Source of the DNA: a candidate division FCPU426 bacterium
Lineage (GTDB): Bacteria > Oederibacteriota > PGYV01 > Palsa-1178
Length of the DNA stretch: 64,000 bases
Assembly: GCA_963840035.1 (NCBI GenBank)
Contig: CAWIXE010000001.1
Coordinates: 320,001 to 384,000, forward strand
Direction: 5' to 3'
The position numbers and the translations under genes were made by a program. This document shows positions 21,298 through 59,835 of this stretch, piece by piece (positions within the stretch are counted from its first letter, which is position 1; every line of letters starts with the position of its first letter). A model generated the notes under the pieces. It ran no database searches. It was not told where the DNA came from and saw only the letters and a list, made by a program, of their open reading frames with translations.

Positions 21298-21325
21298 TGT
21301 CCTGCCTGTCAATTATTGTCACTTT

Positions 21326-23971: not shown

Positions 23972-24062
23972 ATATTTTACCTCCTCTTTCGTTGAATTTC
24001 CAGAGGTAAAATGTCAACCTATTTCAATGGGTTAGCAGTTATGATAATTGACGGCTAGGATA

Positions 24063-24175
24063 ACCCTTGTCTTCCCGCTTCCGGCGCCGGCAAGAATCAG
24101 TATGGGCCCGTCCTTGTGCTTTACAGCCTCAAGCTGTTCTTTATTCATAAGTTCATTAATATTGCTGTTTGTCAA
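24063..24175 (-). pseudogene. pcrA: 5' stub of UvrD/PcrA helicase
   Basis: [29 protein letters not shown] (Q motif plus Walker A) ending at the element IR; own TTGACA/TATAAT promoter at 24224-24251. Confidence 0.8.
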
Positions 24176-24357
24176 TGCTTTGGCTCCATGTTTTTTTCCT
24201 GAGTGGTCATACAATTCCTAAAGATTATATAATGGAAAGGAGTTTTGTCAAGCAAGGATTAAAAACATTTCTAATCTTATTTATATATATAATTATATTT
24301 CTCGTAATTTATTTGGTTGCGTTTCTTTGAAACTGAGTATTAACGCACGAGTTAGAT

Positions 24358-24807
24358 TTAAGTATTTGTGCCCTTCCGTTTCCTTAAAACTGTTGACATA
24401 CAATCTATTAACAACACACTTAGCGACATACCAAATATGCATGTTATTATTCCGATTTTAAATGCCATCTGAAAAAACTCCCTATACTTGATAAATTTTT
24501 TTGATTCCTCTATTAGGTCGTTGTTAAAAATTAAAAACAAAAAAAACACCGCGGATGTAATTATTATGCTTATAATAATTCTTGCATATCGCCGTATTTT
24601 ATTTTTATCCCCCAAAACAGAGTAAGCATCCTCAACAAAAAACGGAATTAATATAACAAACATAAGGTATGTGGAAATTAAATAAGAAATATATTTTTTA
24701 AATCCAACTTTTTCCAATAACAATGATAATACAACACAGCTTATTAACACACAACTATATACAATAAATTTTAATATTGCCTTTTCGTTTTTTTTAGGTT
24801 TGTTCAA
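24358..24807 (-). CDS. Putative membrane immunity protein
   Basis: AT-rich 4-TM ORF right after the RHS C-terminal ORF. Confidence 0.6.
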   Translation of the reverse strand: MNKPKKNEKAILKFIVYSCVLISCVVLSLLLEKVGFKKYISYLISTYLMFVILIPFFVEDAYSVLGDKNKIRRYARIIISIIITSAVFFLFLIFNNDLIEESKKFIKYREFFQMAFKIGIITCIFGMSLSVLLIDCMSTVLRKRKGTNT

Positions 24808-24813
24808 CTCAAA

Positions 24814-25650
24814 TCATCTCCAGCCTTCAATAATATCCGTTAAAGCTAAATAACCACCTTGTTCTATTAAAATAAGTCCTGTCCCCTTTGCAAGGAATCC
24901 TGGCAATCCCGGTATATTGGTTTTAAGCAATAAACTTCCAGCTCCGATCAGGTATGTTTTAAGCTTTCCGTCACTCATGTCAAATGGATCAAATTCTTGT
25001 TTAACTAATGGTTGTGTCATTAAAACCGCATCAAATATCAAACAAGAATTATCGTAAAAGTCCGAAGAGAAAAAGTCATTGTCTGTTGTTTCTAAGTAAT
25101 TGTTGTCACTAATTACTTTATCATCACCATTTATATACTCAATCTCAGCTTCGTTGGGACAAGAAGTATTATAAGGATTTCCATAATTATCATTATTCGG
25201 GTCATCATACATATTCGTTGATTTTGGATTTCTCCAATCGTTTTCTTCATCAACTTCATAATCAACATCATTATTTGAAGTAGCTTCCTCCTCAGATCTC
25301 ATTTCCTCACAATCTGCCTCAATATGAGTCCATCCATCAGAATCAACATAATCCTCTCCATACCTATCTATTAGATTTGTGGGATTGTTTGCGCAATACT
25401 CATACGTATTAATTATGTTATTTCCTTCCAACACAGGATCGTTTTCAATAAATCTCCCCGTATTTGCATCATACCACCTTGCGGCAAAGTAGTAAAGCCC
25501 GGTGTCGGGGTCGTACATGTTTGAGGACAGGCCGAATTTGCTTATGCCGTTTCCTGTCCTTTTCCCGAACTCATCATCTGTTTCCCTCTCCAGCACCTGT
25601 CCTTTCTCATCACAGACCATATATACGCTTCCTATGCGGTCGGGGTATTG
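24814..25650 (-). pseudogene. Orphan RHS-associated core plus C-terminal toxin domain
   Basis: QYPDRIGSVYMVCDEKG..DEFG..YDPDTGLYYFAARWYDANTGRFIENDPV..YEYCANNPTNLIDRYG; no upstream YD-repeat body. Confidence 0.85.
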
Positions 25651-28724: not shown

Positions 28725-30437
28725 TTATGCGGCTTTTTTATTTTTCACGATGATATATATATTGACGCATATTATTACGGCGCACCAGGCCGCTATTATG
28801 CCGGGCCTTATTTTTCCGGCATCCCATAGCTGCGGGAATATCCACGATATGTCAGACCGCGCTGCCTGGGATAAAAATTTCATGACCCAGTTTACGCCGT
28901 TCCCTTTGTTCCACCTGAACCACGGTACCAGAAGGATTATGTACGTCATAAACAGCCCCCAGCATGCCGCAGCCTTAAAAACCGCTTTTTCAATCTTCCC
29001 TTTTGCCTCTTTATAAACCGCCGCGATAAAGAGCGAGAATATGAATATTACCGCCACCATGAACCGCGAAGATGCGCCGCCGCCGCCGTTCCATACGACC
29101 CACGAGGAAACAAGCGCGTAGTAAGGCACTATTAAAAGCAGCGTGTAATAGAATACCTTTTTGCTTTCCCTGTATAAAAACCAGGCGCCGACTAAGAAAA
29201 GCATGTACACGGGCGTGTAAAAGAAAAGCCCGAACTCCTGGTCCAGAAGCGTCCCCAAAAACCCGTTTATGCCCGTTAAAAACTGCTTTGATATATCCGC
29301 AGCCTGCTGGGTCTGCCTCGGTATCAGCTGCCTGAAATGGGCGTAATTAAAGGAAAACAGGGCCGCCAGGGAAATGGCCTGAAAAAGGAGGAAAAATGCG
29401 GTTTCCTTTATCCTGGCGCGGTTCTCCCAGACAAAGATGGCTGCCAGAAACGCCCACAAAAATCCGTTGCGGACATGCGCCCACGGCGCCAAAGCCAGGA
29501 TAATCGAGGCAAAAACAGGGTGCTGCTTTTTATACAATATCATGTAGAAAGCCGAAACCACGATAAGCCCGCTTAAGGATTCGGCGCATATCTGGTTTGC
29601 GTACATTATCACAGGCATGGAAAGCCCTGTAATGAGCGCCGTATGCGCGGCAATCCTGTTATCCTTAAAAACAGCCGCGACCAGCAGGAATATTATTGCC
29701 ATATAAAGCGCCGTAACAAAGTCTGTTAATAATGTCGCGCCGAATCTGCCTGCTGCAAGGTAAAAAGGCTGTATGATGAATGATATCAGCATGGGGTGGT
29801 ACGGATAAAGTTTCCCGGAGACTTCTATCTCCTGCGGCGCGAGTTCTTTGTCATAAAACCCCAGGTAGTCCCTGTTTTCATAATTATTTTTCAAGTCTAT
29901 GTCCCTGTCATGGATCATGCTGTGCGCCGCAAGCAAGTAAACAGGCTCGTCGCCGGTCGGCTGGTTGGCGTAGTTAAACCACAGGGTCACGCCGAAATAA
30001 AAAACCATGAAGAAAGTAAAAATGGAAATAAACAATTTTTTTTCCGTGGTTTTCATGTAATCCGCGGACTTATTTACCATGAAAATAACCTGGCCGGCTA
30101 GGACAGCGATAAAAGTGGCGTATGACGCGCCGAGTAAAAGTTCAAACTTCCTCAGAGTAAAATTATGCGGGTCCGGAAAAACAACTTTCATGACAACGGG
30201 CGCAAGGAAAAGTATTAAAAATGAAAATGTTGCCGGCGAAAGCTTTTTAAAAATTTTGAAAAACCCTTCCTTGGTCCAGCATCTGACGCCTGCAGCTGCC
30301 AGCGATAAAAAAATATATACTGCCGCCGGGAGAATATAAACCGGATATATGAACCCTCCGGGATTGTTCAGCGCGAATGCTTTCATGTAAACAATATAAC
30401 TTATGACAAAACATATGTTTGCCGCAAGCGCGAGCAT
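28725..30437 (-). CDS. GT-C fold membrane glycosyltransferase-like protein
   Basis: TGDEPVYLLAAHS, GLFFYTP, SRF motifs; many TM segments. Confidence 0.7.
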   Translation of the reverse strand: MLALAANICFVISYIVYMKAFALNNPGGFIYPVYILPAAVYIFLSLAAAGVRCWTKEGFFKIFKKLSPATFSFLILFLAPVVMKVVFPDPHNFTLRKFELLLGASYATFIAVLAGQVIFMVNKSADYMKTTEKKLFISIFTFFMVFYFGVTLWFNYANQPTGDEPVYLLAAHSMIHDRDIDLKNNYENRDYLGFYDKELAPQEIEVSGKLYPYHPMLISFIIQPFYLAAGRFGATLLTDFVTALYMAIIFLLVAAVFKDNRIAAHTALITGLSMPVIMYANQICAESLSGLIVVSAFYMILYKKQHPVFASIILALAPWAHVRNGFLWAFLAAIFVWENRARIKETAFFLLFQAISLAALFSFNYAHFRQLIPRQTQQAADISKQFLTGINGFLGTLLDQEFGLFFYTPVYMLFLVGAWFLYRESKKVFYYTLLLIVPYYALVSSWVVWNGGGGASSRFMVAVIFIFSLFIAAVYKEAKGKIEKAVFKAAACWGLFMTYIILLVPWFRWNKGNGVNWVMKFLSQAARSDISWIFPQLWDAGKIRPGIIAAWCAVIICVNIYIIVKNKKAA

Positions 30438-30439
30438 CG

Positions 30440-32044
30440 CTATTTTAACTCCAGCAAAAATATATCATCAGCATAAAAACTTTCCTTCTTTGATACCTTA
30501 TAATACCTGCTGACCCACGGCAGTTTATTTATGTCAGGCGGCTCCCCTGAATCATAATTTGAATTCCATATATTTCCTATCGGCAGCCATATTTCTTTCA
30601 TGCCTATCTTGTTGTCCCTGACAAACCATACCCTCCTGTATTTCCCCGGGAGACCCATGGCGTCCTGTGAAGTCAGCGTGTTTTTGTCAAAACCCGCGTA
30701 TATATCCATCCCGAATTTCTTCAGCAGCACTTCATTCTTGAAGGCCCTCCACATGTCCCTTATTTTAAACCTCAGCCCGCTGCCTTTAAATTCAGGTATT
30801 TCGCCCATGAGCCTGTTGGATATTTTAGTGTTGCTCATGTACCTGCTGTAGAATTCAAATGACGAGTATGAAGCCATGAAGCTGTGGACAATGACGTCCC
30901 CTTCCCTGAAATTTTCAGCTACCTGCGTGTACTGCTTTTTATAATCCGCTTTCTGGTATTTTTCCACAAAATAATAATTGTATAAAGCCAGCGAGTATAT
31001 CCCGAACATGACTGTCATGGCCAGTGTTTTACCCTGCATAGACATATATGATATCCCTATGGAAAGCAGCACGATGATAAGAGCTGAAACAAGTATGAAC
31101 GTCCTTTCCGAGTATATGGACTTCCCGGTCAGAACCGATATGATCCACGGAAACAACATGAACCCGGCCGAGACCCAGAATATTATGCCTGTTATTTTTA
31201 TGGATTTTTGCCTGTAAGTAAACGCGCCTATTATGACAAGGTAAAGGGCCGCGACAAGGGCTATGACCGTGAAAATACCCCAGTCAAAAGTCATGCCGAA
31301 GAGGTAATTTTTCATGGAATAAAACGGGGCTAAAAACATCTGCATGTTGTGGTAGTATGACTCCGCGGAAGAGGCTTTAAGCAGGAACATGAACATCGGC
31401 AGGAGAAAAACGGCTATTACTGCCTGCGCTTTAAGCCACAGGTTGAGCCTTATCTCCTCCCTGTATCCTATTATAAGCACTCCATTCATCACCAAAAGCA
31501 GTATGACGGCAAAAGCGTGCGTATATATTCCCAGCACGCTCCAGAATACGAAAGGCCCCGCCATGAAGGAATTGTATTTTATCGACATCAGGAAGTAGTA
31601 CATCATGAGCATGGATACCACCAGGAACATGGTATAATTTCTGGCTTCCTGCGCGTAATATATCTGATACGGGTTCAGGCAGAAAAGCGCCGTGGCAATC
31701 AGGCTCGTCTCCTCGCTAAAAAACGCCCTCACAAATCTGTAGAAAACAAACATGGAAATGACGCCGAAAACAAACGGCAGGAACCTTAAACTGAGCTCGC
31801 TGTACCCGAAGATGCCGCAGAAAATATGCTCAAGCATGTAAAACATTGGCGGATGCATGTCCTTGGCAAAAACGTCCCAGAAGACCATGATCAGGTCCTT
31901 ATTTGCGGCAAACCGCGCCGTGCAGAACTCGTCTATCCAGACAGACTGGCCGCCCAATTTAAAGAACCTTAAAAATATTCCAATTGCGAATATGATTATG
32001 AGTATGACCGTACTCTTGTTTTTTATTTGTATTACCTGTTTCAT
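30440..32044 (-). CDS. GT39/PMT_2-like (ArnT-like) glycosyltransferase
   Basis: LRFFKLGGQSVWIDE, HPPMFY, SELSLR, YYAQEARNY. Confidence 0.85.
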   Translation of the reverse strand: MKQVIQIKNKSTVILIIIFAIGIFLRFFKLGGQSVWIDEFCTARFAANKDLIMVFWDVFAKDMHPPMFYMLEHIFCGIFGYSELSLRFLPFVFGVISMFVFYRFVRAFFSEETSLIATALFCLNPYQIYYAQEARNYTMFLVVSMLMMYYFLMSIKYNSFMAGPFVFWSVLGIYTHAFAVILLLVMNGVLIIGYREEIRLNLWLKAQAVIAVFLLPMFMFLLKASSAESYYHNMQMFLAPFYSMKNYLFGMTFDWGIFTVIALVAALYLVIIGAFTYRQKSIKITGIIFWVSAGFMLFPWIISVLTGKSIYSERTFILVSALIIVLLSIGISYMSMQGKTLAMTVMFGIYSLALYNYYFVEKYQKADYKKQYTQVAENFREGDVIVHSFMASYSSFEFYSRYMSNTKISNRLMGEIPEFKGSGLRFKIRDMWRAFKNEVLLKKFGMDIYAGFDKNTLTSQDAMGLPGKYRRVWFVRDNKIGMKEIWLPIGNIWNSNYDSGEPPDINKLPWVSRYYKVSKKESFYADDIFLLELK

Positions 32045-32146
32045 TTTACACCTTTCAATGCCGTTATTTAATATCATGCATACATCTATTTTAACAAAAC
32101 AAAGAATTAATTCAATTTTTATTATGTCTTTTATGAATGGATCTGC

Positions 32147-33283
32147 CTACGGAGTCGGTGTTATAGTGGGAGTCGGTGTTACAGTTGCGGTCGCTGATGT
32201 TATCAGATCCACCTGCAATACCTCATTTGTATAAACACCGCCGGCTTTTAATCCGGCTGTCATCCAGTATTGCCCGTTCAGGTCAACTAGCCCCTGAAAC
32301 GCCCTTCCTGTGAAATCTTCGTCCTGTGTCTCGCGGACCCAGTTTATCCCGTTATCCGTCGACCATATCTCTCCATATTGTGTTGAGGCATCCGCGCCTC
32401 CTACCGCCCATAGTCTTCCATTTGCGCTTATCAATCCCATTGCGCACCTCGGACTGAATCCGGGCGACGCCGTTGCTCTGCTCCATGTCGCTCCATCGGT
32501 TGAATGCCACACTTCGCTGCTGTACGACCCTCCACCGAAATTGCCGCCAACAACCCATATCTCTCCATTGAAAACAGCACATCCTATCAGGTCCCTCGGC
32601 GTGAACCCGGCTGATGACGTCTCCTGCATCCATGTTGTTCCATTGCTTGAGCTCCACACGTCATTTTTCATTACACCGCCGGTCGTATTTCCGGCTATTA
32701 TCCACATTTTCCCGTTGAATACCACACTGCCGTGGTTTGTCCGGTATCCTACTGACGTAGTAGAGGCTTCCAACGCCCATATCACTCCATCTGTGGAACT
32801 GTATATGTCCCTCTTTATCGCTCCTGAATATCCTCCCATGATCCACATCCTGCCGTTATATGCCACTGAGGAGTGACCGTACCTTTCGGAAAATGCCGCG
32901 GATCCTGTTGCCTGCGTCCATGATACCCCGTCAGGCGAATACCAGACATCGTTCATGTCTCCGCCAACGCTGCTCGATCCCGCTATTATCCATATCTTAT
33001 TATTGTATATCAGGGTCGTATGCGCCGCCCTTCCCGGTAACGTCGCTGTAAAAGTCGGGGTAAAGGTCCTGGTTATCGTGCTGGTTGGAGAAAATGTTCT
33101 GGTGTTTGTTTGCGAAGGTGTTTTTGTTGTAAAAGTCAAGGTCGGTGTTATCTGGGTTGAGGTGAATGTTAGGCTCGGCGTTGGAAATACAGGTGACGGA
33201 AGGTTTCTTTTAGAACTGCATGCCTGGAAAAAAAATATGGCACACACCAATAATAATATCGCTGTCCTCAAGAATTTAGCCAT
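32147..33283 (-). CDS. Kelch-like repeat lipoprotein with Thr/Pro linkers
   Basis: Lipobox FQA-C; repeats R..H..v.fNGkmWiiGG..NDVWxSxDG. Confidence 0.8.
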   Translation of the reverse strand: MAKFLRTAILLLVCAIFFFQACSSKRNLPSPVFPTPSLTFTSTQITPTLTFTTKTPSQTNTRTFSPTSTITRTFTPTFTATLPGRAAHTTLIYNNKIWIIAGSSSVGGDMNDVWYSPDGVSWTQATGSAAFSERYGHSSVAYNGRMWIMGGYSGAIKRDIYSSTDGVIWALEASTTSVGYRTNHGSVVFNGKMWIIAGNTTGGVMKNDVWSSSNGTTWMQETSSAGFTPRDLIGCAVFNGEIWVVGGNFGGGSYSSEVWHSTDGATWSRATASPGFSPRCAMGLISANGRLWAVGGADASTQYGEIWSTDNGINWVRETQDEDFTGRAFQGLVDLNGQYWMTAGLKAGGVYTNEVLQVDLITSATATVTPTPTITPTP

Positions 33284-33442
33284 GAAAACACCCTCCAATT
33301 ATTTATCGTTTTTATATTATAACATATCAGGAAATGATATGGGCATATGTTTTCTGATATATATGCATAATGATGTAATATTTAAATTAACTGGGGTTTA
33401 ATGATTGATAAGAATTTTCGGAAAGTTTGTATATTTGCTTTT

Positions 33443-34585
33443 TTATTGTGCTAGTTTTGCATATATTTTAAGAGTTTCTTCCGCAGTCTCTTTCCATGAA
33501 AATTTTTCCGCCTGCTTAAACCCCTTTTCCTTCAGGGACTCCCTTTTTGACTCGCTCTTTTCAAGCTCATCGAGCCCGCGGACAATGTCCTCCACGGAAA
33601 AAGGGTCTATGAGCATGGCCGCGTCCCCGGCCACCTCTGAGAGCGACGTATTGTTTGAAGTCACCACAGGCAGCCCGCAAAGAAAAGCCTCCAGCACCTG
33701 CAGCCCGAAACCTTCCCACATGGAAGGGAACAGGAACATGAACGCCGCGTTATAAAGCAGGATCATGTCCTCCTCGGGCGCGTACTCTGTTATAATCACG
33801 TGCTTTTCCAGGTTCAGTTCCTTAATTATATCCGCGATATTCGTGGTGTCCATCTCTTTTTTTCCGATGGAGGTGATCACCAGCTGGTATTTGAATTCCG
33901 TCATGTTATTGAACATGTTAAAGGCTTCAAGCGAGCGCGCAGTGTTTTTCCTCATGTCGGAGGCCGCGCTTAAAAGTACAAACGGCTTTGTGATGCCGTA
34001 TTTCTGTTTTATGCCGGCAATCTTTTTTTCGTCGTTTATGACGCGGTATTTTTTATCCGCGGCTTCCTTTATGACTGTCACTTTTTCTTCTTTGACGTGC
34101 ATGTGCTTCATAATGTCCGATTTTGAATATTCGGAAACAGTTATTACATGGTCCGCTATCCTGCCGGAATGGGGTATTGAAAATTTATTATACGCGTCCA
34201 CCATGCGCTGCTTGAACGTCGGTTTTGATATTGCTTTTGCCAGCGGCCGCACGAACATGGTGTCGTGTATGGTCACTACCTTTTTTCCCTGATAGTAAGG
34301 GCTTAAATACGGAAGCGTATTGTCGGTCCCGTGCAGTATGTCGAGCTTATCCTTCGCCGCTTCCATAGGAAGCAGAAACTGCTCATATAAAAGGGCGTTC
34401 GCGGTATTTAACCTCTTGAACCTGCAGTTTTTCGCCGCTATATATTCATTAAGGGTGGAACGCTTGTCCAGGTAAACGATGTATTCGTTTTTTTTGTCTA
34501 TCTCAAGGAGGTTCTTAACCAGGTTTTCAATATACCTGCCCACACCCCTCTTGAAAATTATCCTGGCGTCAATTCCTATTCTCAC
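33443..34585 (-). CDS. Glycosyltransferase family 4
   Basis: MRIGIDAR, GVGRY, VVTIHD, EGFGLQVLEA. Confidence 0.9.
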   Translation of the reverse strand: MRIGIDARIIFKRGVGRYIENLVKNLLEIDKKNEYIVYLDKRSTLNEYIAAKNCRFKRLNTANALLYEQFLLPMEAAKDKLDILHGTDNTLPYLSPYYQGKKVVTIHDTMFVRPLAKAISKPTFKQRMVDAYNKFSIPHSGRIADHVITVSEYSKSDIMKHMHVKEEKVTVIKEAADKKYRVINDEKKIAGIKQKYGITKPFVLLSAASDMRKNTARSLEAFNMFNNMTEFKYQLVITSIGKKEMDTTNIADIIKELNLEKHVIITEYAPEEDMILLYNAAFMFLFPSMWEGFGLQVLEAFLCGLPVVTSNNTSLSEVAGDAAMLIDPFSVEDIVRGLDELEKSESKRESLKEKGFKQAEKFSWKETAEETLKIYAKLAQ

Positions 34586-34652
34586 AATTCACCGCTTTTT
34601 TGTTCATTGTTCCTCGTTCATTGTTCTGTTGCCACCCTCCACTCACCACCCA

Positions 34653-35429
34653 CTACTCACAACTTTCTATACCCTTCTTTCTCCCCACCACTATAAACCC
34701 TCCGCCTTTTTCCGGCAGAAGTTTTGTCATTATCGCGTCTATGGCGTCAAGCTTCCAAAATATGAATTTTTCCGGCAATTTGCCTATGATATTCTCAAGG
34801 CCCTTGGGCATCCTTAAATAATTTGTTGATATGGTCTTTTCCACTTCAAACCCGGCCTTATACATGAGATCTTTTACCTCTTTCGGGTTGAAGTTAAAAA
34901 GGTGGTCCTTGTGCTCTATCTCCAGTTTTTTCGCGTGCTTTTTAAACATGAGCTTATAAAACGCGTCCTTGTTGGTGAGGGTTACTATTATGATGCCGCC
35001 TTCTTTTAAGGCGTTGTAGGCGTTTTTTATGACCTTGCCGGGCTCATAGGTGTGGTCAAGGACTTCCTTTATCAGGCAGGCGTCGTACGCGCAGGATTCC
35101 TCCAGCGTCTCGCCTGTGCCGTGCCTTAACTCAAAATCCTCTTCCTTTATCTCGTCATGAAGCATGTTCTCGGATGGCTCTATGCCGGTATATTTTTTTA
35201 CAATATCGCGCGAGAGCTTGTAAAAATCCCCCCTGCCCGCCCCTATATCCAGCAGGCTTAAGTACTCATTGCGCGCCACGACTTCCTTGGCCAGTATGGA
35301 GATGACGGTCTTATTGAGCCTTTTCCACTTTTTTTTCATCATCTCTGTGGCAGAGCTCTCCAGCAGCTCGGTATCATCCCACTTAAGCTGCGTCTCTTCC
35401 CAGGCTTTTACCTTATCGTCGTTTTCCAT
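34653..35429 (-). CDS. Class I SAM-dependent methyltransferase
   Basis: LLDIGAGRG, GIEPS, EVLDH, LKEGG; likely ATG at 35429. Confidence 0.85.
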   Translation of the reverse strand: MENDDKVKAWEETQLKWDDTELLESSATEMMKKKWKRLNKTVISILAKEVVARNEYLSLLDIGAGRGDFYKLSRDIVKKYTGIEPSENMLHDEIKEEDFELRHGTGETLEESCAYDACLIKEVLDHTYEPGKVIKNAYNALKEGGIIIVTLTNKDAFYKLMFKKHAKKLEIEHKDHLFNFNPKEVKDLMYKAGFEVEKTISTNYLRMPKGLENIIGKLPEKFIFWKLDAIDAIMTKLLPEKGGGFIVVGRKKGIESCE

Positions 35430-35516
35430 AAATCTCCCGGCTGTTGTGTTGATATGACTTATTTTAACAAAAACAGAGGTATATTTAAAGGTGTAATAAG
35501 GGATTTTATTGTTCTC

Positions 35517-35679
35517 GTAGAGAGGGGGCTTGCCCCCTCTCAAACGCAGGCCTGCCTTGAGATCCAGCAAGCCGGCTCTCTACAGTTATATAAAACCACA
35601 ACAAAGTTCTCGTAGAGAGGGGGCTTGCCCCCTCTCCAGCGCAGGTCCTGCCCTGAGAGGCAGCAAGCCGCCTCTCTAC
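35517..35679. repeat. REP doublets flanking RAYT (3' side)
   Basis: GTAGAGAGGGGGCTTGCCCCCTCTC paired with GAGA..CAGCAAGCCG.CTCTCTAC, twice. Confidence 0.85.
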
Positions 35680-36200
35680 AGGTTCTCTAACTTCTTCCGT
35701 TCCTCAAACAATTCATACCATTCCTTCTCTTCCATGCCGGGTTCATAAACCATTGGGTTGTTTAATATATACTCACTTGCAAAAAAATACTCAAATTCTC
35801 CCCGTATTATCCTGTCATAAAACCCTTCCTGCCAAAATTTCCTGCCGGGTTTCTGTTGTAATTTATTAATTGCTATCGTTGATTTTGATTTAAAAACGCA
35901 TATCATATCGTGGAGTGTTTTGCCTGTTTTCCTGCCAATCCGGATAATACCGTGCATATGATCCGGCATAAACATAAAATCGCCAAGAGCAATGTTTTCA
36001 AACTTACTTTTTAGTTCGATCCAGCATGCTGTTGCCGCCTTTCCGGCGTCTGACAAAAACATTTTTCGGTCTTTTATAGAACCAAAAAAGTTATGCCGTT
36101 TATCAAGACAGATGGTGACAGAATAATCCCCTTCCGATGAATAGTCATATTCTTTTAAATGATTTGATTCGATACGGTATTTGTTGTTGTAAAGCGACAT
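35676..36200 (-). CDS. REP-associated tyrosine transposase (RAYT, Y1 HUH)
   Basis: YDYS..YSVTIC, MPDHMHGII (HUH), FKS, FWQEGFYDRIIR, YILNNP; flanked by REPs. Confidence 0.9.
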   Translation of the reverse strand: MSLYNNKYRIESNHLKEYDYSSEGDYSVTICLDKRHNFFGSIKDRKMFLSDAGKAATACWIELKSKFENIALGDFMFMPDHMHGIIRIGRKTGKTLHDMICVFKSKSTIAINKLQQKPGRKFWQEGFYDRIIRGEFEYFFASEYILNNPMVYEPGMEEKEWYELFEERKKLENL

Positions 36201-36245
36201 ATAAACCCCTCTATTTTACGATTTATATCCCCAAAATACGTTTTA

Positions 36246-36397
36246 CTTGCCCCCTCTCAAACGCAGTCCAGCCCTGAGAGCCAGCAAGCCGGCTCTCTAC
36301 AGTTTTATAAATACAAAACAACGCTCTCGTAGAGAGGGGGCTTGCCCCCTCTCAAACGCAGGCCCTGCCCTGAGAGCCAGCAAGCCGGCTCTCTACA
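36246..36397. repeat. REP doublets flanking RAYT (5' side)
   Basis: Same REP pairs as 35517-35679; first one truncated. Confidence 0.85.
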
Positions 36398-36408
36398 AAT
36401 TATATATA

Positions 36409-37476
36409 TTATTTAACTTCCGCCTTATACTTCACCAGCCGCTGTTTTTTCTTCCCTTCCAGCATCTCCAGCGCGAGCCTTCCTATGAACTCAGCTGGTA
36501 TTTCCAGGCATTCCTTGTAAATGTCCTTCCTGTTGCATATGGCAAGCCCGCACGGGCTGCATTTGACGTGCCTGTCTACTATTACGGCCTTGTCTCCCAT
36601 GGCTCCCCACTCCTGGTACCTTGCGGAACCGCTGAATATGGTGAGCGACTTTACGCCGAAAGCCGCCGCGATATGGACGGCCGCGGAATCATTACCTATG
36701 ACGAGAGAGGCGTGTTTTATAATGGCTTTCATTTCCTTTAAGTTGAGCATACCTGCCAGGTTTACCACGTGCCTGCCGCGTATCTTTTCTATGCCCCTGT
36801 CTTTTTTCCCGCCGACTACGACGGTCTTTATGCCGCGCGACATGAATTCAGCCAGGCTGTTGTACTTTTCCATGTCCCAGTCTTTGGACGTGTGCCCAGA
36901 GACAGGGTGCATGACTATGTATTTCGTGACTTTTCCTTTTTCAAGAAGGGCTTTTATGTTGTCTTCCGATACCTTATCTGTTTTAAGCGCTGTTTTTGCT
37001 GGAAGCTTTACGCCTGTTATTTCTTTTAGCAGGAGCATGTTTTTTTCCGCGGCGTGGGATGAGATCGGCGGGTGGCTTACAATATGGTTGATGCCAAACC
37101 CCATTTTGCCGGTATCGTATCCGTATTTGTCCTTTGCCTTTGCCATGGAGAGTATAAACGAAGTGAGCCTGTCCTGCCAGCGCATGCCAATTATCATGTC
37201 ATACTTTCCGGCGTTTAAAAGGGATATGAGTTTGAATGCGGAAAACCATCTTACGAAAAACGGCTTTGGCTCGTACTTAAGCCATTGCGCGTCAAATGTC
37301 TTAACTTCATCAAAACACCCGAGCCCGTCTAAAACCTGCGAGCCCGCGGGGCTTAAGAACGCGGTGATGTGGGCGTCCTTAAAATGTTTCCTCAGTCCCA
37401 AAAAAAATGGAGACGCAAGTACTGCGTCTCCGATACCGTCTGTTTTTATGACCGCGATGCGTAGCCTGTTTTCCAT
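36409..37476 (-). CDS. Glycosyltransferase family 9 (heptosyltransferase-like)
   Basis: DGIGDAVL, HPVSG..KDW, IGNDSAAVHIAAA. Confidence 0.9.
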   Translation of the reverse strand: MENRLRIAVIKTDGIGDAVLASPFFLGLRKHFKDAHITAFLSPAGSQVLDGLGCFDEVKTFDAQWLKYEPKPFFVRWFSAFKLISLLNAGKYDMIIGMRWQDRLTSFILSMAKAKDKYGYDTGKMGFGINHIVSHPPISSHAAEKNMLLLKEITGVKLPAKTALKTDKVSEDNIKALLEKGKVTKYIVMHPVSGHTSKDWDMEKYNSLAEFMSRGIKTVVVGGKKDRGIEKIRGRHVVNLAGMLNLKEMKAIIKHASLVIGNDSAAVHIAAAFGVKSLTIFSGSARYQEWGAMGDKAVIVDRHVKCSPCGLAICNRKDIYKECLEIPAEFIGRLALEMLEGKKKQRLVKYKAEVK

Positions 37477-52364: not shown

Positions 52365-52393
52365 TTGACATCCGCTATTAAATGGGTTATAAC
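52365..52393 (+). promoter_or_regulatory. Sigma70 promoter of inositol-lipid operon
   Basis: TTGACA-17 bp-TATAAC. Confidence 0.6.
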
Positions 52394-52421: not shown

Positions 52422-53066
52422 TTGATTTCTTTTTTAAGGAGACTTTTTTTGCCAAAAGCAGGAAAAAGGGAAATTCGCTCCATTTTAAAGGATCTGAGCC
52501 AGAAAATCCTGGCTCCTGTTGTTGTTCTTTTAAAAAAAACAGGAATAACCCCTGACATCCTTACCTGGACAGGGTTCCTGCTGAACTTACCCGCGGTTTA
52601 CTTCATTATTAAGGGTAATTTCGCAATAGCCGCTCTCATAGTTCTTTTTGCCGCCATTTTTGACATGTTAGACGGCGCTTTAGCCCGCATGGGAAACATG
52701 AAGACCAAATTCGGCGGGTTTCTTGATTCTACGGTGGACAGGTTTATAGAGGGAATTTTGTACTTCGGACTTCTTGTATACTATATTGAAACCGGAAATA
52801 AATACGGCATCATGTTAAGTTACGCGGTGTTGTTCTTTTCCTTTCTTGTCAGCTATTTGCGGGCAAGGGCCGGAGGGCTTAAGATTGACTGTGAAGTCGG
52901 GATCTTTACGCGGCCTGAAAGGCTTGTTGTTCTTATATTAGGGCTTCTTTTTAACCTGGTTTTTTATGTGCTGGTTATACTGGTTGTGGCGTCGTTTATC
53001 ACCGCGGTACAGCGCATGATGCTTGTTTATGCTGAGGCCAAAAAGTTGGATAAAAAAAGGAAATAA
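52422..53066 (+). CDS. CDP-alcohol phosphatidyltransferase (phosphatidylinositol phosphate synthase-like)
   Basis: GITPD, DMLDGALAR..GGFLDSTVDR, VSYLRARA, RPERL. Confidence 0.9.
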   Translation: MISFLRRLFLPKAGKREIRSILKDLSQKILAPVVVLLKKTGITPDILTWTGFLLNLPAVYFIIKGNFAIAALIVLFAAIFDMLDGALARMGNMKTKFGGFLDSTVDRFIEGILYFGLLVYYIETGNKYGIMLSYAVLFFSFLVSYLRARAGGLKIDCEVGIFTRPERLVVLILGLLFNLVFYVLVILVVASFITAVQRMMLVYAEAKKLDKKRK

Positions 53067-53081
53067 TTTCAAGGAGGGTTT

Positions 53082-54167
53082 TTGAAGATGGAAAAGAAGA
53101 AAATCAGACTCGCGATTGTCGGACTCGGAAACTGCGCCTGGTCTCTTATGCAGGGGCTGGAGTACTATAAAAACGTAAAAGATGACGCGCAGATACAGGG
53201 ATTAATGCACGCCAACCTCGGCGGTTACAGGATTAAGGACATAGAACTTGTGGCCGCGTTTGATGTTGATTCCAATAAGGTCGGTAAGGACGCCAAAGAA
53301 GCCCTTGAATCACCTCCGAACAATACCATTGAATTCGCGAAATTAAAAAAGACCGGGGTTAAGGTCATGATGGGAAAGACCCTGGACGGCCTCGGCAAAT
53401 ATTACAGGACCGTCGTAAAAGAAGCCACGGCAAAACCCGTTGACATAGCAAAAACATTAAAAAAAGTTAAGGCTGATGTCCTCGTATCATACCTCCCTGT
53501 CGGCTCGGAAAAAGCCGTTAAATTTTACGCTACCGAATGCCTGAAGGCAAAGGTCGCTTTTGTAAACGCCATCCCGGTTTTTGTCGCCTCAAACCCGGAA
53601 TGGGCTGAGAAATTCAAAAAAGCCGGCGTGCCTATTATCGGCGACGACATCAAGTCGCAGGTCGGCGCCACCATAGTACACAGGGTATTAACGCAGCTGT
53701 TCGGAGACAGAGGCTGCAAGATTTACAGGACATACCAGATAAACTTCGGCGGCAATATGGACTTCATGAATATGCTGGAGAGGGAAAGGCTTTACTCCAA
53801 GAAAATATCCAAGACTAACGCCGTGCTAAGCCAGATGCAGAACCCGATAAACGCCGCGGAAGACGTCCACGTCGGCCCGAGCGACTACGTGCCGTGGTTA
53901 AAGGACAGGAAATGGTGCTATATAAAGATAGAAGGCTCCAATTTCGGCGAAGTTCCCATCGACATAGAGCTAAAGCTTGAGGTCTGGGATTCCCCCAACA
54001 GCGCCGGAGTTATCATTGACGCTGTAAGATGCGCGAAGATCGCCCTGGACAGGAAGATCGGCGGCATACTTGAAGGCCCTTCGGCGTATTTCATGAAAAC
54101 GCCTCCCAAACAGTACAACGACTCAAAAGCAAAGCAAATGGTCGAGGACTTCATTAAGGAAAGATAA
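53082..54167 (+). CDS. ino1: myo-Inositol-1-phosphate synthase
   Basis: [43 protein letters not shown]. Confidence 0.95.
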
Positions 54168-55034
54168 ATGTACATACTGCTCAAACTCACAGAGCTGATA
54201 ATACAAAATATCCCGCGTAAAGCGGGATATTTTATTTTTACCGTTTTTTCAAAAATGTCATTCATCTTTAACAAAAAACGCAGGGAGACTCTCCGGGAAA
54301 ACTTGAGCGCAGCCATCGGCGCGGATAAAGTAGATGACGCGCTCTTAAAAAAGGTATTTGTCAATTACGGCAAGTATTACTGCGACCTTTTCATGAAAAC
54401 CACCAGCCTGCAGGCCTATATCCCGGCGGAGTGCGGCAATTATTTTCGTGACACCATTGTTCCCGTTGTAAATTCATACCTTACCAAAGGGCGCGGCGTT
54501 ATTTTTGCGTCCATGCATTACGGCAGCTGGGACATAGCCGGCAGTTTTGCCGCCGGGTACTTTAAGGGAAAGCTCAATGTTGTTGTTGAAAAGCTCTCAG
54601 GCGGTATGTTTAAATGGTTCATGGAGAAACGCGGCGTCCTGGGCATGAAGCCGATCGAATCCACCGACATCAAATCCATGATCAGGGTTTTAAAAGCCGG
54701 CGAAATACTCATCTTAATGGCCGACCGCGACCTGGACAAACGCGGCTATAAAATGGATTATTTCGGGAAGAAAGCGTGCATCCCCAGCGGCCCGGCGAAG
54801 ATATCGTTAATGGCTAAAACCCCGATATTCATAGGCGTGGCACCGAGGGATAAGGACGATAACTTCTGGCCAATGCTTAACATACCGCCGATTAACGCGG
54901 AATGCGTCGAAAGGTCGGAAGAAGCGGCGGAAAACATAACAAAACAGCTTGTCGCCGCGATGGAGAAGTTCGTAAGAAACGACCCGTCACAGTGGTGTAT
55001 GCTGCAGGAGGTCTTTGTAAAGGAAGATAAGTAA
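54168..55034 (+). CDS. Lipid A/PIM acyltransferase family (PatA-like)
   Basis: HYGSWD (HxxxxD), ADRDL, FFG-like YFG..PSGPA, PSQW. Confidence 0.85.
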   Translation: MYILLKLTELIIQNIPRKAGYFIFTVFSKMSFIFNKKRRETLRENLSAAIGADKVDDALLKKVFVNYGKYYCDLFMKTTSLQAYIPAECGNYFRDTIVPVVNSYLTKGRGVIFASMHYGSWDIAGSFAAGYFKGKLNVVVEKLSGGMFKWFMEKRGVLGMKPIESTDIKSMIRVLKAGEILILMADRDLDKRGYKMDYFGKKACIPSGPAKISLMAKTPIFIGVAPRDKDDNFWPMLNIPPINAECVERSEEAAENITKQLVAAMEKFVRNDPSQWCMLQEVFVKEDK

Positions 55035-55109
55035 TAGAAAAACGGAGCTGGATTATCACTTCTCCTGTCTCCAATCTCTTGTCTCTTAACCTCTAAGGAG
55101 CAACAACTT

Positions 55110-56249
55110 TTGACAAAAAGTAAAAGTTTTAAAAAAATAGCCATAGTAACGCCGTACTACTACCCGCTGTTTGGCGGCGTACAGGAGTATGTCTATCACT
55201 TAAAGAAAGAATATAAAAAACTCGGCTACTATGTCCGCGTTATAACCGGCACTTTTAAGAGGGAGCACAGCAAGGACGAGAACGAGGTCCTTCGCATGGG
55301 GCTCGGCGTGCCGATAAAGTTTAACGGCTCGGTAGGCAGGATCATCATGATACGCCGCGGTGAAAAGGTCAGGCAGACCCTTGATTATTATAACTTTGAC
55401 ATCATCCACCTCCAGGAACCCTTTGTTCCCTTCCTTTCGCACGACGTTATTAAGTATTCAAAAGCCGTCAATGTCGCCACCTTCCACGCCAATTTTGAGA
55501 CAAACTTCTTTTACAGCTTTGGCAGGGTTTTCCTCCTGCCTTTGTGGGACAGGCTTGCCGGCAGGATAGCTGTATCGCCTTCGGCTAAATCAAGCATTAC
55601 CAAATATTTCAGCGGCAAAGATGTTGAAATAATACCCAACGGCGTTGACACTTCCCGCTTCACGCCTAAAAACAAAAAGATAAAGAGATTTGATGACGGT
55701 ATGACAAATATTCTTTTTACAGGCAGGGTGGAAAAACGCAAAGGCCTGATATATCTGCTCCAGGCTTTCGGCGGGTTAAAGAAAAAACACCCGAAGATAC
55801 GCCTTATAGTCGTAGGCAGGGGCCCTCTTTTAAAGCATCACAAAAAATATGTAGAAGACAATAAAATCAAAGACGTCCACTTCGAGGGTTTTGTTCCCAT
55901 AGACGACCTTCCGCGTTATTATTCCACGGCCGACATCTACTGCTCCCCGGCTTTATTCGGGGAATCATTCGGCATAGTCCTGCTTGAGGCCATGGCCTCG
56001 GCGGTTCCTGTTGTGGCTTTCAACATAAGCGGGTATAATGACGTGGTCTCGAACTTAAGCGACGGCCTGCTCGCCGAGCCGCGAAACATACACGACCTGG
56101 CAGAAAAGCTGGAACTGCTTATAACCGATAAGAAACTGCGGCGCACTCTCGGGTCAAACGGCCTGAAAAAAGCGCGCAAATTCACATGGAAAGAGATAGC
56201 AGCGCGCAACATTGCGTATTATAAAAAACTCTGGGAGAACAAAAAATAA
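55110..56249 (+). CDS. GT4 phosphatidyl-myo-inositol mannosyltransferase (PimA-like)
   Basis: GGVQ, VPIKFNGSVGRI, IHLQEP, VATFH, IPNGVD, ADIYCSP..GESFGIVLLEAMA, as recalled for mycobacterial PimA. Confidence 0.8.
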   Translation: MTKSKSFKKIAIVTPYYYPLFGGVQEYVYHLKKEYKKLGYYVRVITGTFKREHSKDENEVLRMGLGVPIKFNGSVGRIIMIRRGEKVRQTLDYYNFDIIHLQEPFVPFLSHDVIKYSKAVNVATFHANFETNFFYSFGRVFLLPLWDRLAGRIAVSPSAKSSITKYFSGKDVEIIPNGVDTSRFTPKNKKIKRFDDGMTNILFTGRVEKRKGLIYLLQAFGGLKKKHPKIRLIVVGRGPLLKHHKKYVEDNKIKDVHFEGFVPIDDLPRYYSTADIYCSPALFGESFGIVLLEAMASAVPVVAFNISGYNDVVSNLSDGLLAEPRNIHDLAEKLELLITDKKLRRTLGSNGLKKARKFTWKEIAARNIAYYKKLWENKK

Positions 56250-57118
56250 TGTATTACATCCTCCGCTTTGCCACCTGGTTCATCTGCCTTTTCCCCATTA
56301 AGCCGCTTTACGCATTCGCCGGCTGGGCCACTAAAATAGTTTTTAAGTTCTGGAAGGAAAAACGGGAAAACATCCATAGAAATTACTCCGTGATTCTGTC
56401 AAAAAAGTACGGAAGGCCGGCCACTGGAGAAGAGATTAATGCCGTAATGGAGGATAACTACATCAACTACGGCAAGTTCAATGTAGAGTTCCTCTATATG
56501 AACAAGCTGATAAAAATGTCAAACCTTCCGCCCGCAAGGAATATTGAGCGCATTGACGAAGGCTTAAAACCCGGCAAAGGCCTCATGATATGTACCCTTC
56601 ACTTTTCCAACTGGGACGTGGCAGGCGCCATCATATCCGGCCATTATAAAGATAAATGCGAAGTCTGGGCCATAGCCGACGACTTAGGCGGCGGTTATTC
56701 AAAGTTCATCCAGGATTCCAGAAACCGCTACGGCATCAAGATAGTTCTGGGTAACAAGAACATAAAAGACGCCTACGGCTGCTTAAACAGGGGCGGCATA
56801 TTGAACGTGCTCTTAGACAGGCCATTGCCCCGCACAGACAAAAGCGGCGTTGAAGTGGAATTCTTCGGCAAAAAGATATGGGTAGCCTCCACAGCCGCCC
56901 GCATAGCCCTTAAAACAGGCTGCAGGATGTTAGTAGGCTACGCAGTAAGGGAAGGCATGTCCTTCTACGGCCAGCCCGGCCCGCTGCTGGAATACACCCT
57001 CACAGGCGACAAAGACAAGGACGTCCAGATAATCACCCAGTCAGCCATGAGAGACGCGGAAAAACTCATCATGGACCACCCGGAACAGTGGTATATGTTC
57101 AGGAATATGTGGACTTAA
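56249..57118 (+). CDS. Second PatA-like acyltransferase
   Basis: HFSNWD, LLDR, VEFFG, HPEQWYMF. Confidence 0.85.
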   Translation: MYYILRFATWFICLFPIKPLYAFAGWATKIVFKFWKEKRENIHRNYSVILSKKYGRPATGEEINAVMEDNYINYGKFNVEFLYMNKLIKMSNLPPARNIERIDEGLKPGKGLMICTLHFSNWDVAGAIISGHYKDKCEVWAIADDLGGGYSKFIQDSRNRYGIKIVLGNKNIKDAYGCLNRGGILNVLLDRPLPRTDKSGVEVEFFGKKIWVASTAARIALKTGCRMLVGYAVREGMSFYGQPGPLLEYTLTGDKDKDVQIITQSAMRDAEKLIMDHPEQWYMFRNMWT

Positions 57119-57255
57119 AACAAATTTTCAATTCTAAATTTTCAATTTTCAATTAAATTCTTGCGTTTTAATAATCGCACTGTATAATGTCTTTTGTTAT
57201 TATTTGTTATTAATTGAAAATTTAAAATATAAAATTGAAAATCGGAAGGTTGACA

Positions 57256-57984
57256 ATGCCAAAAAAAGTATTTAAAAACAACAAACTACCAAAAGGTTTT
57301 TCAAAGGCCGACTACCACATCCACACCTCCATAGGCGACGCGGTAATGACGCCTCAGGAGCTGGTTGACTTCTGCGAGCATAAGACCGACTTAAAAGTAA
57401 TCGCCGTCACAGACCACGACCAGATAAAAGGGGCCATAGAGGCTCAGCAGTACGCCAAAAAGAAAAAGTACAAGCTGGAAGTCATAGTGGGTGAGGAAGT
57501 CTCCACACTTAAAGGCCACCTCATAGGCCTCTTCATGAAACAGCGCATCAGAAGGTACACGACGCTCCCCAAAACCATAAAGATGATACACGAACAGGGC
57601 GGCATAGTCATAGTCCCCCACCCATTGTCATGGTTGACCACCAGCGTGGGTGAGATGGCCTTCAGGCAGATAATAAAGTCAAAGGATCCCAACATATATT
57701 TCGACGCTGTAGAATTAATAAATCCGGCGATAGCCGGGAAGATAACGGACGGAAAGGCTCAGAAACTTAACGATAAAGTTTGGAAACTCCCCGTCACAGG
57801 CGGCTCAGACGCCCACTCCATAGACGGCATAGGCTCAGCATACACAATCTTCAAAGGCAAAACCGCCGAAGACTTCCGCAAAGCGATCTTAAACGGCACA
57901 ACCACATACGGCGGTTGTTACTGGAACTTCAGGGAGCATTGGGATTTGTTTGTGGAAAAATTTAAAAAGTTTAAAGTTTTTTAA
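57256..57984 (+). CDS. PHP domain phosphoesterase
   Basis: ADYHIHT, AVTDHD, GEEV, PHP, GGSDAH. Confidence 0.9.
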   Translation: MPKKVFKNNKLPKGFSKADYHIHTSIGDAVMTPQELVDFCEHKTDLKVIAVTDHDQIKGAIEAQQYAKKKKYKLEVIVGEEVSTLKGHLIGLFMKQRIRRYTTLPKTIKMIHEQGGIVIVPHPLSWLTTSVGEMAFRQIIKSKDPNIYFDAVELINPAIAGKITDGKAQKLNDKVWKLPVTGGSDAHSIDGIGSAYTIFKGKTAEDFRKAILNGTTTYGGCYWNFREHWDLFVEKFKKFKVF

Positions 57985-58655: not shown

Positions 58656-58759
58656 CGCAAGGACAAATGAAACCTGAGGGCGCATAATATGCGCCCTCTA
58701 CGGTTTTATGAATTGTCTTCCTCCTAAACCCCTAATCCTTACCCTTATGTTCCTGCCTT

Positions 58760-59835
58760 GAGACGCAGACAAGCTGCGTCTCTACAATGGTTGTAAATAT
58801 TTCAGCTGTGAAAACCCGTAGAGACGGGACCCGTGCCCGTCTCCGCGCTGCTGCGTTGCTGCCCTGAGACGCAGACAAGCTGCGTCTCTACAGTGTGCGT
58901 AAATATTTCAGTTCTTAAAACCCGTAGAGACGGGACCCGTGCCCGTCTCCGCGCTGCTGCGTTGCTGCCCTGAGACGCAGACAAGCTGCGTCTCTACAGT
59001 GGTTATAAATATTTCAGCTGTAAAAACCGTAGAGACGGGCCTTGTGCCCGTCTCCACGCTGCTGCGTTGTTGCACTGAGACGCAGACAAGCTGCGTCTCT
59101 ACAGTGGGTGTAAATATTTACAGCTGTTAAACCCGCAGAGACGGGACCCGTGCCCGTCTCCGCGCTGCTGCGTTGCTGCCCTGAGACGCAGACAAGCTGC
59201 GTCTCTACAATGGGTGTAAATATTTACAGCTGTTAAACCCGTAGAGACGGGACTCGTGCCCGTCTCCGCGCTGCTGCGTTGCTGCCCTGAGACGCAGACA
59301 AGCTGCGTCTCTACAATGGTTGTAAATATTTCAGCTGTTAAAACCGTAGAGACGGGACCCGTGCCCGTCTCCGCGCTGCTGCGTTGCTGCCCTGAGACGC
59401 AGACAAGCTGCGTCTCTACAATGGTTGTAAATATTTCAGCTGTGAAAACCCGTAGAGACGGGACCCGTGCCCGTCTCCGCGCTGCTGCGTTGCTGCCCTG
59501 AGACGCAGACAAGCTGCGTCTCTACAATGGTTGTAAATATTTCAGCTGTGAAAACCCGTAGAGACGGGACCCGTGCCCGTCTCCGCGCTGCTGCGTTGCT
59601 GCCCTGAGACGCAGACAAGCTGCGTCTCTACAATGGTTGTAAATATTTCAGCTGTTAAAACCGTAGAGACGGGCCTTGTGCCCGTCTCCGCGCTGCTGCG
59701 TTGCTGCCCTGAGACGCAGACAAGCTGCGTCTCTACAATGGTTGTAAATATTTCAGCTGTTAAAACCGTAGAGACGGGCCTCGTGCCCGTCTAAACCCCG
59801 GATCGATCCAGACCCCCACGAGGGGCGTCTCTACG
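58760..59835. repeat. BIME/REPIN-like tandem array, ~10 units of 105-106 bp
   Basis: Alternating GTAGAGACGGG..CCCGTCTC and GAGACGCAGACAAGCTGCGTCTCTAC with near-identical linkers. Confidence 0.95.

Follow-up and report, generated by a model that had tools for sequence, protein, structure and literature searches.

In a 64,000-nucleotide stretch of a candidate division FCPU426 bacterium (GenBank assembly GCA_963840035.1, contig CAWIXE010000001.1, positions 320,001 to 384,000 of the forward strand; the whole stretch is called the window here), six intact open reading frames (ORFs) at 52422-57984 lie on the plus strand and encode, in order, a CDP-alcohol phosphotransferase (PF01066), the inositol phosphate synthase Ino1 (PF01658), an acyltransferase (A, PF03279), a family 4 glycosyltransferase (GT4), a second acyltransferase (B, PF03279) and a PHP-family protein (Table 1). 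A first-pass annotation had read this row as a mycobacterial-style operon for phosphatidylinositol mannosides (PIMs), and the Pfam families agree with the gene identities and the shared orientation that it gave. The cassette is 5.5 kb long, with intergenic gaps of 21, 0, 75, -1 and 137 bp, and is bordered by a divergent signal peptidase gene upstream and an HSP20 gene downstream.

Table 1 Features of the six-gene operon, in window coordinates
Feature	Position	Strand	Basis
Sigma70-type promoter-like site, TTGACA-N17-TATAAC	52365..52393	+	Sequence; like site in 14/17 relatives
Phosphatidylinositol phosphate (PIP) synthase, PgsA1-like	52449..53066 (longest ORF from 52422)	+	PF01066; PgsA1 best solved relative
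Myo-inositol-1-phosphate synthase Ino1	53088..54167	+	PF01658; TIGR03450 below cut-off
Acyltransferase A, PatA-type, likely acylates the sugar	54168..55034	+	PRK07920 best NCBIfam; clade with PatA
PimA-like GT4 glycosyltransferase	55110..56249	+	PimA 154 bits; motifs invariant in 21/21
Acyltransferase B, second PatA-family paralogue, candidate second-site (possibly inositol) acyltransferase	56249..57118	+	HX4D; model fold; profile
Weak possible internal promoter before the PHP gene, TTGCGT-N16-TATAAT	57161..57188	+	Sequence only
PHP-family metallophosphoesterase with C-terminal aromatic/basic helix, candidate PIP phosphatase	57256..57984	+	PF02811/PF13263; ligands kept

The promoter-like site upstream of the first gene, which is absent from the output of our generic promoter scan because that scan requires a T at the last position, recurs 5' of the first gene in most of the relatives examined, and this conservation suggests housekeeping expression of the operon. 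That the operon has the single promoter proposed in the first pass is less secure, since the AT-rich 137-bp gap before the PHP gene contains a weak second promoter-like site; in most relatives this gap is much shorter. An AAGGAG at 52436-52441 precedes a TTG at 52449, and the first gene probably starts at this TTG rather than at 52422, where its longest ORF begins.

The operon is conserved in the order of its lipopolysaccharide-diderm host

The relatives of the RecR and GT4 proteins are labelled Candidatus Goldbacteria or Goldiibacteriota (we took single Spirochaetia or Firmicutes labels as mislabels), placing the host outside the Actinobacteria. In the host genome, which is 98% complete, LpxC is encoded in a cluster reading bamA-skp-lpxD-lpxC-fabZ-lpxA (neighbours named from their translations), and a third PF03279 gene, whose best models are lipid A lauroyltransferases, adjoins kdsD-, kdsC- and lpt-like (lptC-like) genes. 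The presence of lpxC, lpxA, lpxD and the β-barrel assembly gene bamA, together with a separate LpxL, therefore identifies the host as a lipopolysaccharide (LPS) diderm with its own LpxL. The annotation had supposed a non-actinobacterial diderm; of the envelope genes it had listed, the GT9 gene (36409-37476) and the OmpA gene (25821-27791) were confirmed, while the PorV-type label found no Pfam support.

A PimA-like gene occurs in 21 of the 24 genomes of the order and in none of the 75 others in the phylum (at most 19 candidates were scored per genome), and the gene order is identical in all 20 of the relatives' loci, of which 17 are complete and 3 could be compared up to the contig end that truncates them, so that the arrangement is not a matter of chance. 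PF03279 genes number three in 18 of 20 genomes of the order, four in one and one in the operon-less G008. The members without a PimA-like gene are G008 (96% complete), G016 (89%) and G014 (82%), the last of which retains the PIP synthase and ino1 genes with a different neighbour. The GC content of the locus (46%, against 47% for the genome) fits an old acquisition.

Beyond the order, ino1 is present in 29 of the 31 genomes of family f17. Four sister-lineage ino1 loci that we opened (three from f17, one from f20) have no adjacent PimA-like or PHP gene. In these loci (L201-L204, from G036, G030, G046 and G041) ino1 directly follows the lptB-like gene of a kdsD-kdsC-lpxL-lpt cluster, with a PIP synthase gene detected beside it in three of the four, which suggests that these diderms make plain phosphatidylinositol (PI). 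An f17 ino1 separated from a PF03279 gene by some 4 kb, considered as a second cassette, proved to be this same arrangement of PIP synthase and ino1 genes beside kdsD-kdsC-lpxL-lpt genes, and contains no PimA-like gene.

Probable enzymes for phosphatidylinositol phosphate synthesis and phosphatidylinositol glycosylation

The best solved relative of the PIP synthase (P0001) is PgsA1 (E 2e-22). The protein keeps the DxxDGxxAR...GxxxDxxxDR signature as well as the equivalents of PgsA1 R94, S132, R137, R152, R155 and R195; the account of PgsA1 in PMC6506517 has its arginines bind inositol phosphate, and the retention of these binding residues indicates that the direct product of P0001 is likely PIP rather than PI. 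The model of the Bacteroides enzyme BT_1523 scores lower on P0001 than the mycobacterial and archaeal PIP synthase models do, and separate pgsA and pssA-like genes are present elsewhere in the genome. Ino1 is 76-88% identical among the relatives. Almost certainly, Ino1 would convert glucose-6-phosphate to inositol phosphate, which the PgsA1-like enzyme would combine with CDP-diacylglycerol to form PIP.

Against the solved GT4 enzymes, the glycosyltransferase (P0004) scores 154 bits with PimA, 69 with the next one and 56 with PimB', which upholds its description as PimA-like. Y16 (Tyr9 of PimA), the NGS loop, HxxEP, H126, R206, R210/K211 and ESFG are invariant in all 21 GT4 copies. Tyr9 and a Ser of PimA differ in PimB', as set out for these enzymes in PMC2988379; both are kept in the 21 copies, and two other GT4s of the host lack them. 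In an unrooted tree (the outgroups were too distant to root either the PIP synthase or the PimA tree), long branches part P0004 from the host's other GT4s. No PimB' gene lies in the operon, and the top one of 11 other GT4-like proteins of the host gave no PimB' match at 1e-8. Very probably, P0004 would glycosylate the inositol at O2, most likely with mannose from GDP-mannose to give the monomannoside PIM1.

The host genome encodes ManA, above its cut-off, and two nucleotidyltransferases whose best match is the mannose-1-phosphate guanylyltransferase model (312 and 279 bits, with a cut-off of 440); one mannose-1-phosphate-guanylyltransferase-like gene adjoins a phosphohexomutase gene. A supply of GDP-mannose is plausible from these genes. 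It is improbable that the pathway has this design with a different sugar, the GT4 adding glucose, N-acetylglucosamine or another residue so that the product would be an acylated glycosyl-PI and not a mannoside. The donor specificity of GT4 enzymes is poorly predictable from sequence, the PimA-like family outside the Actinobacteria is uncharacterised, with actinobacterial PimA on a long branch, the guanylyltransferase matches do not reach their cut-offs, and a search of the host genome for a type II ManC found none. Mannose is nevertheless favoured by the GESFG loop and the acceptor-side motifs, which occur in both P0004 and PimA but are not shared by the host's other GT4s, by a PimA score more than twice that of the next solved GT4, and by the best match of the two nucleotidyltransferases.

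At L210 1450-3696 (G000:C1, about 1005800-1008000), a mannose-1-phosphate-guanylyltransferase/phosphohexomutase-like ORF of 574 amino acids is overlapped by a further ORF, possibly through a frameshift.

Two acyltransferases of the PatA family

Both LpxL and LpxM share their Pfam family, fold and HX4D motif with the two acyltransferases of the operon, and the first-pass annotation had named grouping with and acting as LpxL as an outcome that would speak against its reading. The two ACYLTRANSFERASES (A and B) instead join actinobacterial PatA, apart from the LpxL-type proteins, with an SH-aLRT (Shimodaira-Hasegawa-like approximate likelihood ratio test) support of 99 in three quick trees and with 100/99 in a careful tree; the host's own LpxL-type gene lies elsewhere, beside the kdsD/kdsC-like genes. 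For the 57-row tree, four long branches (L046, L049, L051 and L130) and 21 near-duplicates had been removed beforehand, and 21 further removals left the 36 rows used in the approximately unbiased (AU) tests; in the 82-row tree, L049 and L051 are long-branched members of the PatA-like clade.

Acyltransferase A is the clearer of the two. Its best solved relative is PatA (E 4e-17), with whose actinobacterial members it forms one clade in the careful tree (92/92), and the AU test rejects its grouping with LpxL (p-AU 0.007-0.03). PatA H126, D131, W130, E149, F160 and R164 are kept as H117, D122, W121, E141, F151 and R155, with an aromatic residue at the position of W84. Probably, A would acylate the sugar at O6 as PatA does, yielding acylated PIM1 (AcPIM1).

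Acyltransferase B also has an intact HX4D motif and keeps PatA H126, D131 and R164, but it departs from PatA at the acceptor site, with D144 for E149, Y282 for H284 and the non-aromatic N78 at W84 (the three PatA positions are treated as acceptor-site residues, and H284 is modelled against inositol O3, in the structural descriptions of PMC4792965 and PMC8519569). Its predicted model (pLDDT, the predicted local distance difference test score, 94.7) finds its best fold match in PatA (E 2e-17, versus 9e-13 for LpxM). Changes like those of B recur in Chloroflexota, where, in a sample of 71 genomes, PatA-like genes are present in 54, a tandem pair in 34 and LpxC in none, so that lipid A is not a requirement for the acyltransferase pair. 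Of 50 upstream copies from such Chloroflexota pairs, 82% bear the Asp and 84% the Tyr. On profiles of the upstream and downstream copies, built from 50 non-Goldbacteria pairs only and labelled by position, the upstream profile is favoured by 46-75 bits in every one of the 21 B copies, and the downstream profile by 1-35 bits in every one of the 21 A copies and in three PatA proteins. B is placed among the upstream copies, with weak support, in the careful tree, the AU tests prefer it there, and in all 33 loci counted a B-type gene is accompanied by an A-type partner (L104, with B alone, was excluded as having too little upstream DNA). B is likely a paralogue of ancient origin whose acceptor site differs. 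The "duplicated acyltransferase" of the first pass is accordingly a second PF03279 gene, but probably no local duplicate: it matches the second paralogue of Chloroflexota, of which the trees are no proof.

On gene context, B is a candidate second-site, possibly inositol, acyltransferase; that it adds a chain at a second site of the lipid has a little more than even odds, and the most attractive site, which we name tentatively, would be inositol O3, once a phosphatase had freed it. The alternative, at slightly better than even odds, is that B does not acylate inositol and acts on mannose O6 with another donor or chain length, on a different hydroxyl of the sugar or, as the least likely case, on lipid A. 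The trees leave room for this: B lies outside the A clade in one quick tree and in the careful tree and beside Goldbacteria A in the two other quick trees, which unite A and B with WOR-3-type rows (SH-aLRT 93-94), and the AU tests, in which A with LpxL was the only grouping rejected, retain both a Goldbacteria-specific clade of A and B (p 0.19-0.33) and B with LpxL (p 0.21-0.33). B scores alike on the PatA model (81.3 bits) and on a lipid A lauroyltransferase model (80.9 bits). Furthermore, it need not be a PatA paralogue that acylates inositol in mycobacteria, two actinobacterial operons holding a single acyltransferase each. An inositol acceptor is supported, on the other side, by the differences between A and B at the acceptor-site residues E149, H284 and W84, by the constant A-type partner, and by the occurrence of B-type genes in a phylum sample without LpxC.

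The cassette is common in Chloroflexota

A survey of PimA-like loci across phyla covered the best 80 of 599, mostly with Chloroflexota and Dormiibacterota titles. Of these 80 loci, all from other phyla, 68 carry a PIP synthase gene, 50 carry ino1, 45 an acyltransferase gene and 38 a PHP gene, and 25 have the complete set together. Since this set of six is frequent in Chloroflexota, the operon is Chloroflexota-type in content and not specifically mycobacterial: the "mycobacterial-style" label holds insofar as PgsA1, PimA and PatA are the closest solved relatives of its enzymes, but not for the cassette as a whole. The order differs as well, being PIPS-ino1-acylB-acylA-PHP-pimA or ino1-acylB-acylA-PHP-pimA-PIPS in Chloroflexota and Dormiibacterota (PIPS being the PIP synthase gene) and PIPS-ino1-A-pimA-B-PHP in the window, whose B matches the upstream paralogue of that cassette; the hosts differ in that LpxC is found in 0 of 71 of them, unlike the LPS host of the window.

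Compared with the early PIM locus pgsA1-patA-pimA (Rv2612c-Rv2610c; Tsukamurella L140 and Nonomuraea L141), the window has the same combination of a PIP synthase, a PatA-family and a PimA-family gene in one operon, and the catalytic and acceptor residues of PgsA1, PatA and PimA are largely kept. The Tsukamurella and Nonomuraea operons hold, of the six genes, pgsA1-patA-pimA only; the window operon adds ino1, the second acyltransferase and PHP genes, lacks the HIT and NUDIX genes of Tsukamurella, and belongs to an LPS diderm and not to an actinobacterium. (Actinobacteria were represented by three named records, L140, L141 and L172; L123, titled "Actinomycetes", was not counted as actinobacterial, its phylum sample being that of a Thermomicrobium genome.) A third point of comparison is BT_1522-BT_1526 of Bacteroides thetaiotaomicron, likewise from a diderm, in which PI is made by Ino1 and a PIP synthase together with a PIP phosphatase encoded in the cluster. 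In the part of PMC9246714 that concerns this cluster the phosphatase is of the PgpA family, the products are PI-diacylglycerol and an inositol sphingolipid, and no PimA/PatA-type step is described; the PHP protein of the window is not homologous to the PgpA-type BT_1525.

Parts of the cassette also occur in other diderms, namely A-pimA-PIPS in G086 and A with pimA in WOR-3-type loci, with LpxC in four of five of these genomes, and KSB1-labelled proteins are PimA-like. Synteny thus extends across phyla as the full set in Chloroflexota and, in other LpxC-bearing genomes, as PimA- and PatA-like genes. In two WOR-3-type loci (L119 and L128), an A-type acyltransferase gene, a short dUTPase-like gene, a PimA-like GT4 gene and a gene for a major facilitator superfamily-like transporter stand in a row, with a PIP synthase-like gene elsewhere.

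The trees of the individual genes point in several directions. The window PHP protein nests among Chloroflexota PHP proteins (supports 83-89), Ino1 and the PIP synthase group weakly with sister-lineage copies (87 and 84), for which reason the operon may be a mosaic, and the GT4 groups with WOR-3 and KSB1-type proteins, none of these placements having strong support. Direct transfer from Actinobacteria is not the best tree, nor is it rejected (p-AU 0.31).

A lone patA-annotated gene (L172 4474-5382) is carried among DUF5994 genes by a Nocardia farcinica plasmid; its product has Asp at the position of PatA E200.

The PHP protein as a candidate PIP phosphatase

The PHP protein keeps the metal ligands H21, H23, D28, H54, E81, H88, H122, D185 and H187, and its predicted model has the PHP fold (pLDDT 92). 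The aromatic/basic motif of its C-terminal helix, kept in all 19 complete relatives (identity 59-74%), could bind membranes. As the sole hydrolase in the cassette it is a candidate, at slightly less than even odds, for the enzyme that would remove the 3-phosphate of PIP to give PI. Its link to lipid genes extends beyond the order: among the 46 of 81 PHP rows that entered the count, 22 of the 23 strongest Chloroflexota matches have a PatA-like gene no more than 300 bp away, versus 1 of the 23 weaker ones.

The chances are even that the PHP protein is not the PIP phosphatase, PIP being dephosphorylated by PgpA or by the inositol monophosphatase (IMPase)-family protein, both of which the host genome also encodes, and PHP acting instead on a nucleotide or CoA by-product, on an inositol phosphate that is cyclic or soluble, or on a later lipid intermediate linked to B. 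PI-type loci without PHP do exist: it is absent beside the PIP synthase and ino1 genes in the four sister-lineage loci L201-L204 and from the two actinobacterial operons, it was not found in the Thermomicrobium genome G088 with the queries used, and 11 of 33 Chloroflexota genomes with a tandem acyltransferase pair have no adjacent PHP gene. PHP tracks acyltransferase B more than it does the PIP synthase, 57 of 65 loci being concordant (29 with both, 28 with neither, 4 and 4 discordant); after correction for kinship the co-occurrence with B is non-significant (3 independent pairs, p 0.5), and there were too few independent pairs for the corrected co-occurrence with A or B. Its nearest characterised folds are nucleases and nucleotide phosphatases. 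As to precedent, the Bacteroides PIP phosphatase is of the PgpA family in the description of PMC9246714, the mycobacterial one is given as not yet identified in PMC6506517, and EphE is proposed for that role, without biochemical proof, in the relevant portion of 10.64898/2026.07.15.738315.

These points are offset by several others. The host pgpA adjoins pgsA, which fits the phosphatidylglycerol pathway; the cassette is otherwise complete and retains PHP in two gene orders across phyla; and unrelated folds serve PIP dephosphorylation in different lineages, so that a patchy occurrence of PHP is expected. According to the chemistry laid out in PMC6506517, PMC4792965 and PMC12041525, inositol O3 carries the phosphate in PIP and the fourth acyl chain in the mycobacterial lipid Ac2PIM2, which would explain why PHP tracks B if the PHP protein were indeed the PIP phosphatase. 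Prediction of a PHP-PimA complex gave a score of 0.00 in two runs and weighs neither way.

One match among longer proteins, an apparent PHP-PimA fusion (P0127), is likely an assembly artefact, its linker and tail reading out-of-frame and its GT4 being truncated; the 11 longer proteins scanned of the best 150 representatives contained no PHP-GT4 fusion, and PHP-GT2, PHP-STAS and PHP-PHP fusions were present. Distant PHP proteins pair with glycosyltransferases, as at L135 281-2118 (G085), where the PHP gene overlaps a non-PimA GT4 gene, and in P0313, which is fused to a GT2. Preparing lipid acceptors may be a general role of this group of PHP proteins.

An acylated phosphatidylinositol monomannoside as the predicted product

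The genes, their order and conservation, their family placement and the residues they keep are firm, whereas the activities and the product are predictions. Read together, they point to an acylated PI-monomannoside-type lipid resembling the early mycobacterial PIMs, at a probability of roughly two in three, and an acylated PI-glycoside, as first suggested, remains the best reading of the locus. Besides the points on the sugar, B and PHP weighed above, several observations count against it. None of the PIP synthase, Ino1, A and B attains its curated equivalog cut-off (the PIP synthase has 145 bits with NF045883, cut-off 170; Ino1 536 with TIGR03450, cut-off 638; and A 140 with its best NCBIfam model PRK07920, cut-off 209). 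The proteins share little identity with characterised enzymes (for B, a structural identity of about 21%). A deviates from PatA with D186 for E200 and C277 for H284, the Asp being found in both A and B and also in the Nocardia plasmid copy, and its preference of 1-35 bits for the downstream profile lies within the scatter of 17 LpxL-type controls (-18 to +26 bits). Finally, G008 lacks pimA, ino1 and both acyltransferase genes, showing the operon to be dispensable.

The most far-reaching version of this reading, in which a single self-contained operon lets an LPS diderm produce a PI-monomannoside with four acyl chains, the PHP protein stripping the inositol 3-phosphate and B acylating that same 3-OH, is unlikely, but if true it would give the first enzymes for two PIM activities that lack assigned ones, and it would mark PIM-type lipids as an old trait of several phyla, the actinobacterial operon being a reduced form. 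The cassette supplies one candidate each for the PIP phosphatase and the inositol O3 acyltransferase, the latter described for mycobacteria as not yet identified in the sections of PMC4792965 and PMC12041525 that deal with it. As the two actinobacterial operons have neither PHP nor B, a positive result would define the activities and not name the mycobacterial enzymes.

PIMs are described, in the text available from 10.64898/2026.07.15.738315, as glycolipids of mycobacteria and other actinobacteria. Our literature search found no paper describing this operon, or PimA or PatA outside the Actinobacteria, and no characterisation of the Chloroflexota/Dormiibacterota cassette. Within the Chloroflexota, the genus Dictyobacter has PI and unidentified glycolipids, as its description in PMC12453558 records. 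If the operon does direct PIM synthesis, a PIM-type lipid would stand beside lipid A in the envelope of an LPS diderm. PIM-like lipids are reportedly found in Thermomicrobia and Thermosporothrix as well; if that is right, PIMs outside the Actinobacteria are less surprising, and the present reading of the operon gains support.

Other features of the window

Several GT-C-like (PMT_2) membrane proteins, a GT4 and a GT9 are encoded at 28725-37476 of the window and at L033 14469-16073. Within the former interval, a Y1 (IS200-like) transposase gene on the minus strand (35676-36200) looks like a tyrosine transposase associated with repetitive extragenic palindromes (REPs). At 58749-59835 lie ten units of 105-106 bp, each with two palindromes ending in CTAC, in the manner of REPs or bacterial interspersed mosaic elements; a 25-base core of this array is found 17 times in the genome, spread over 7 places, and the second palindrome 35 times over 14 places, one of them a 14-copy array. 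Finally, the interval 19917-25620 contains fragments resembling RHS-repeat C-terminal modules and possible immunity genes, split by two integrase/transposase elements; an rve domain was confirmed for 22397-23971.

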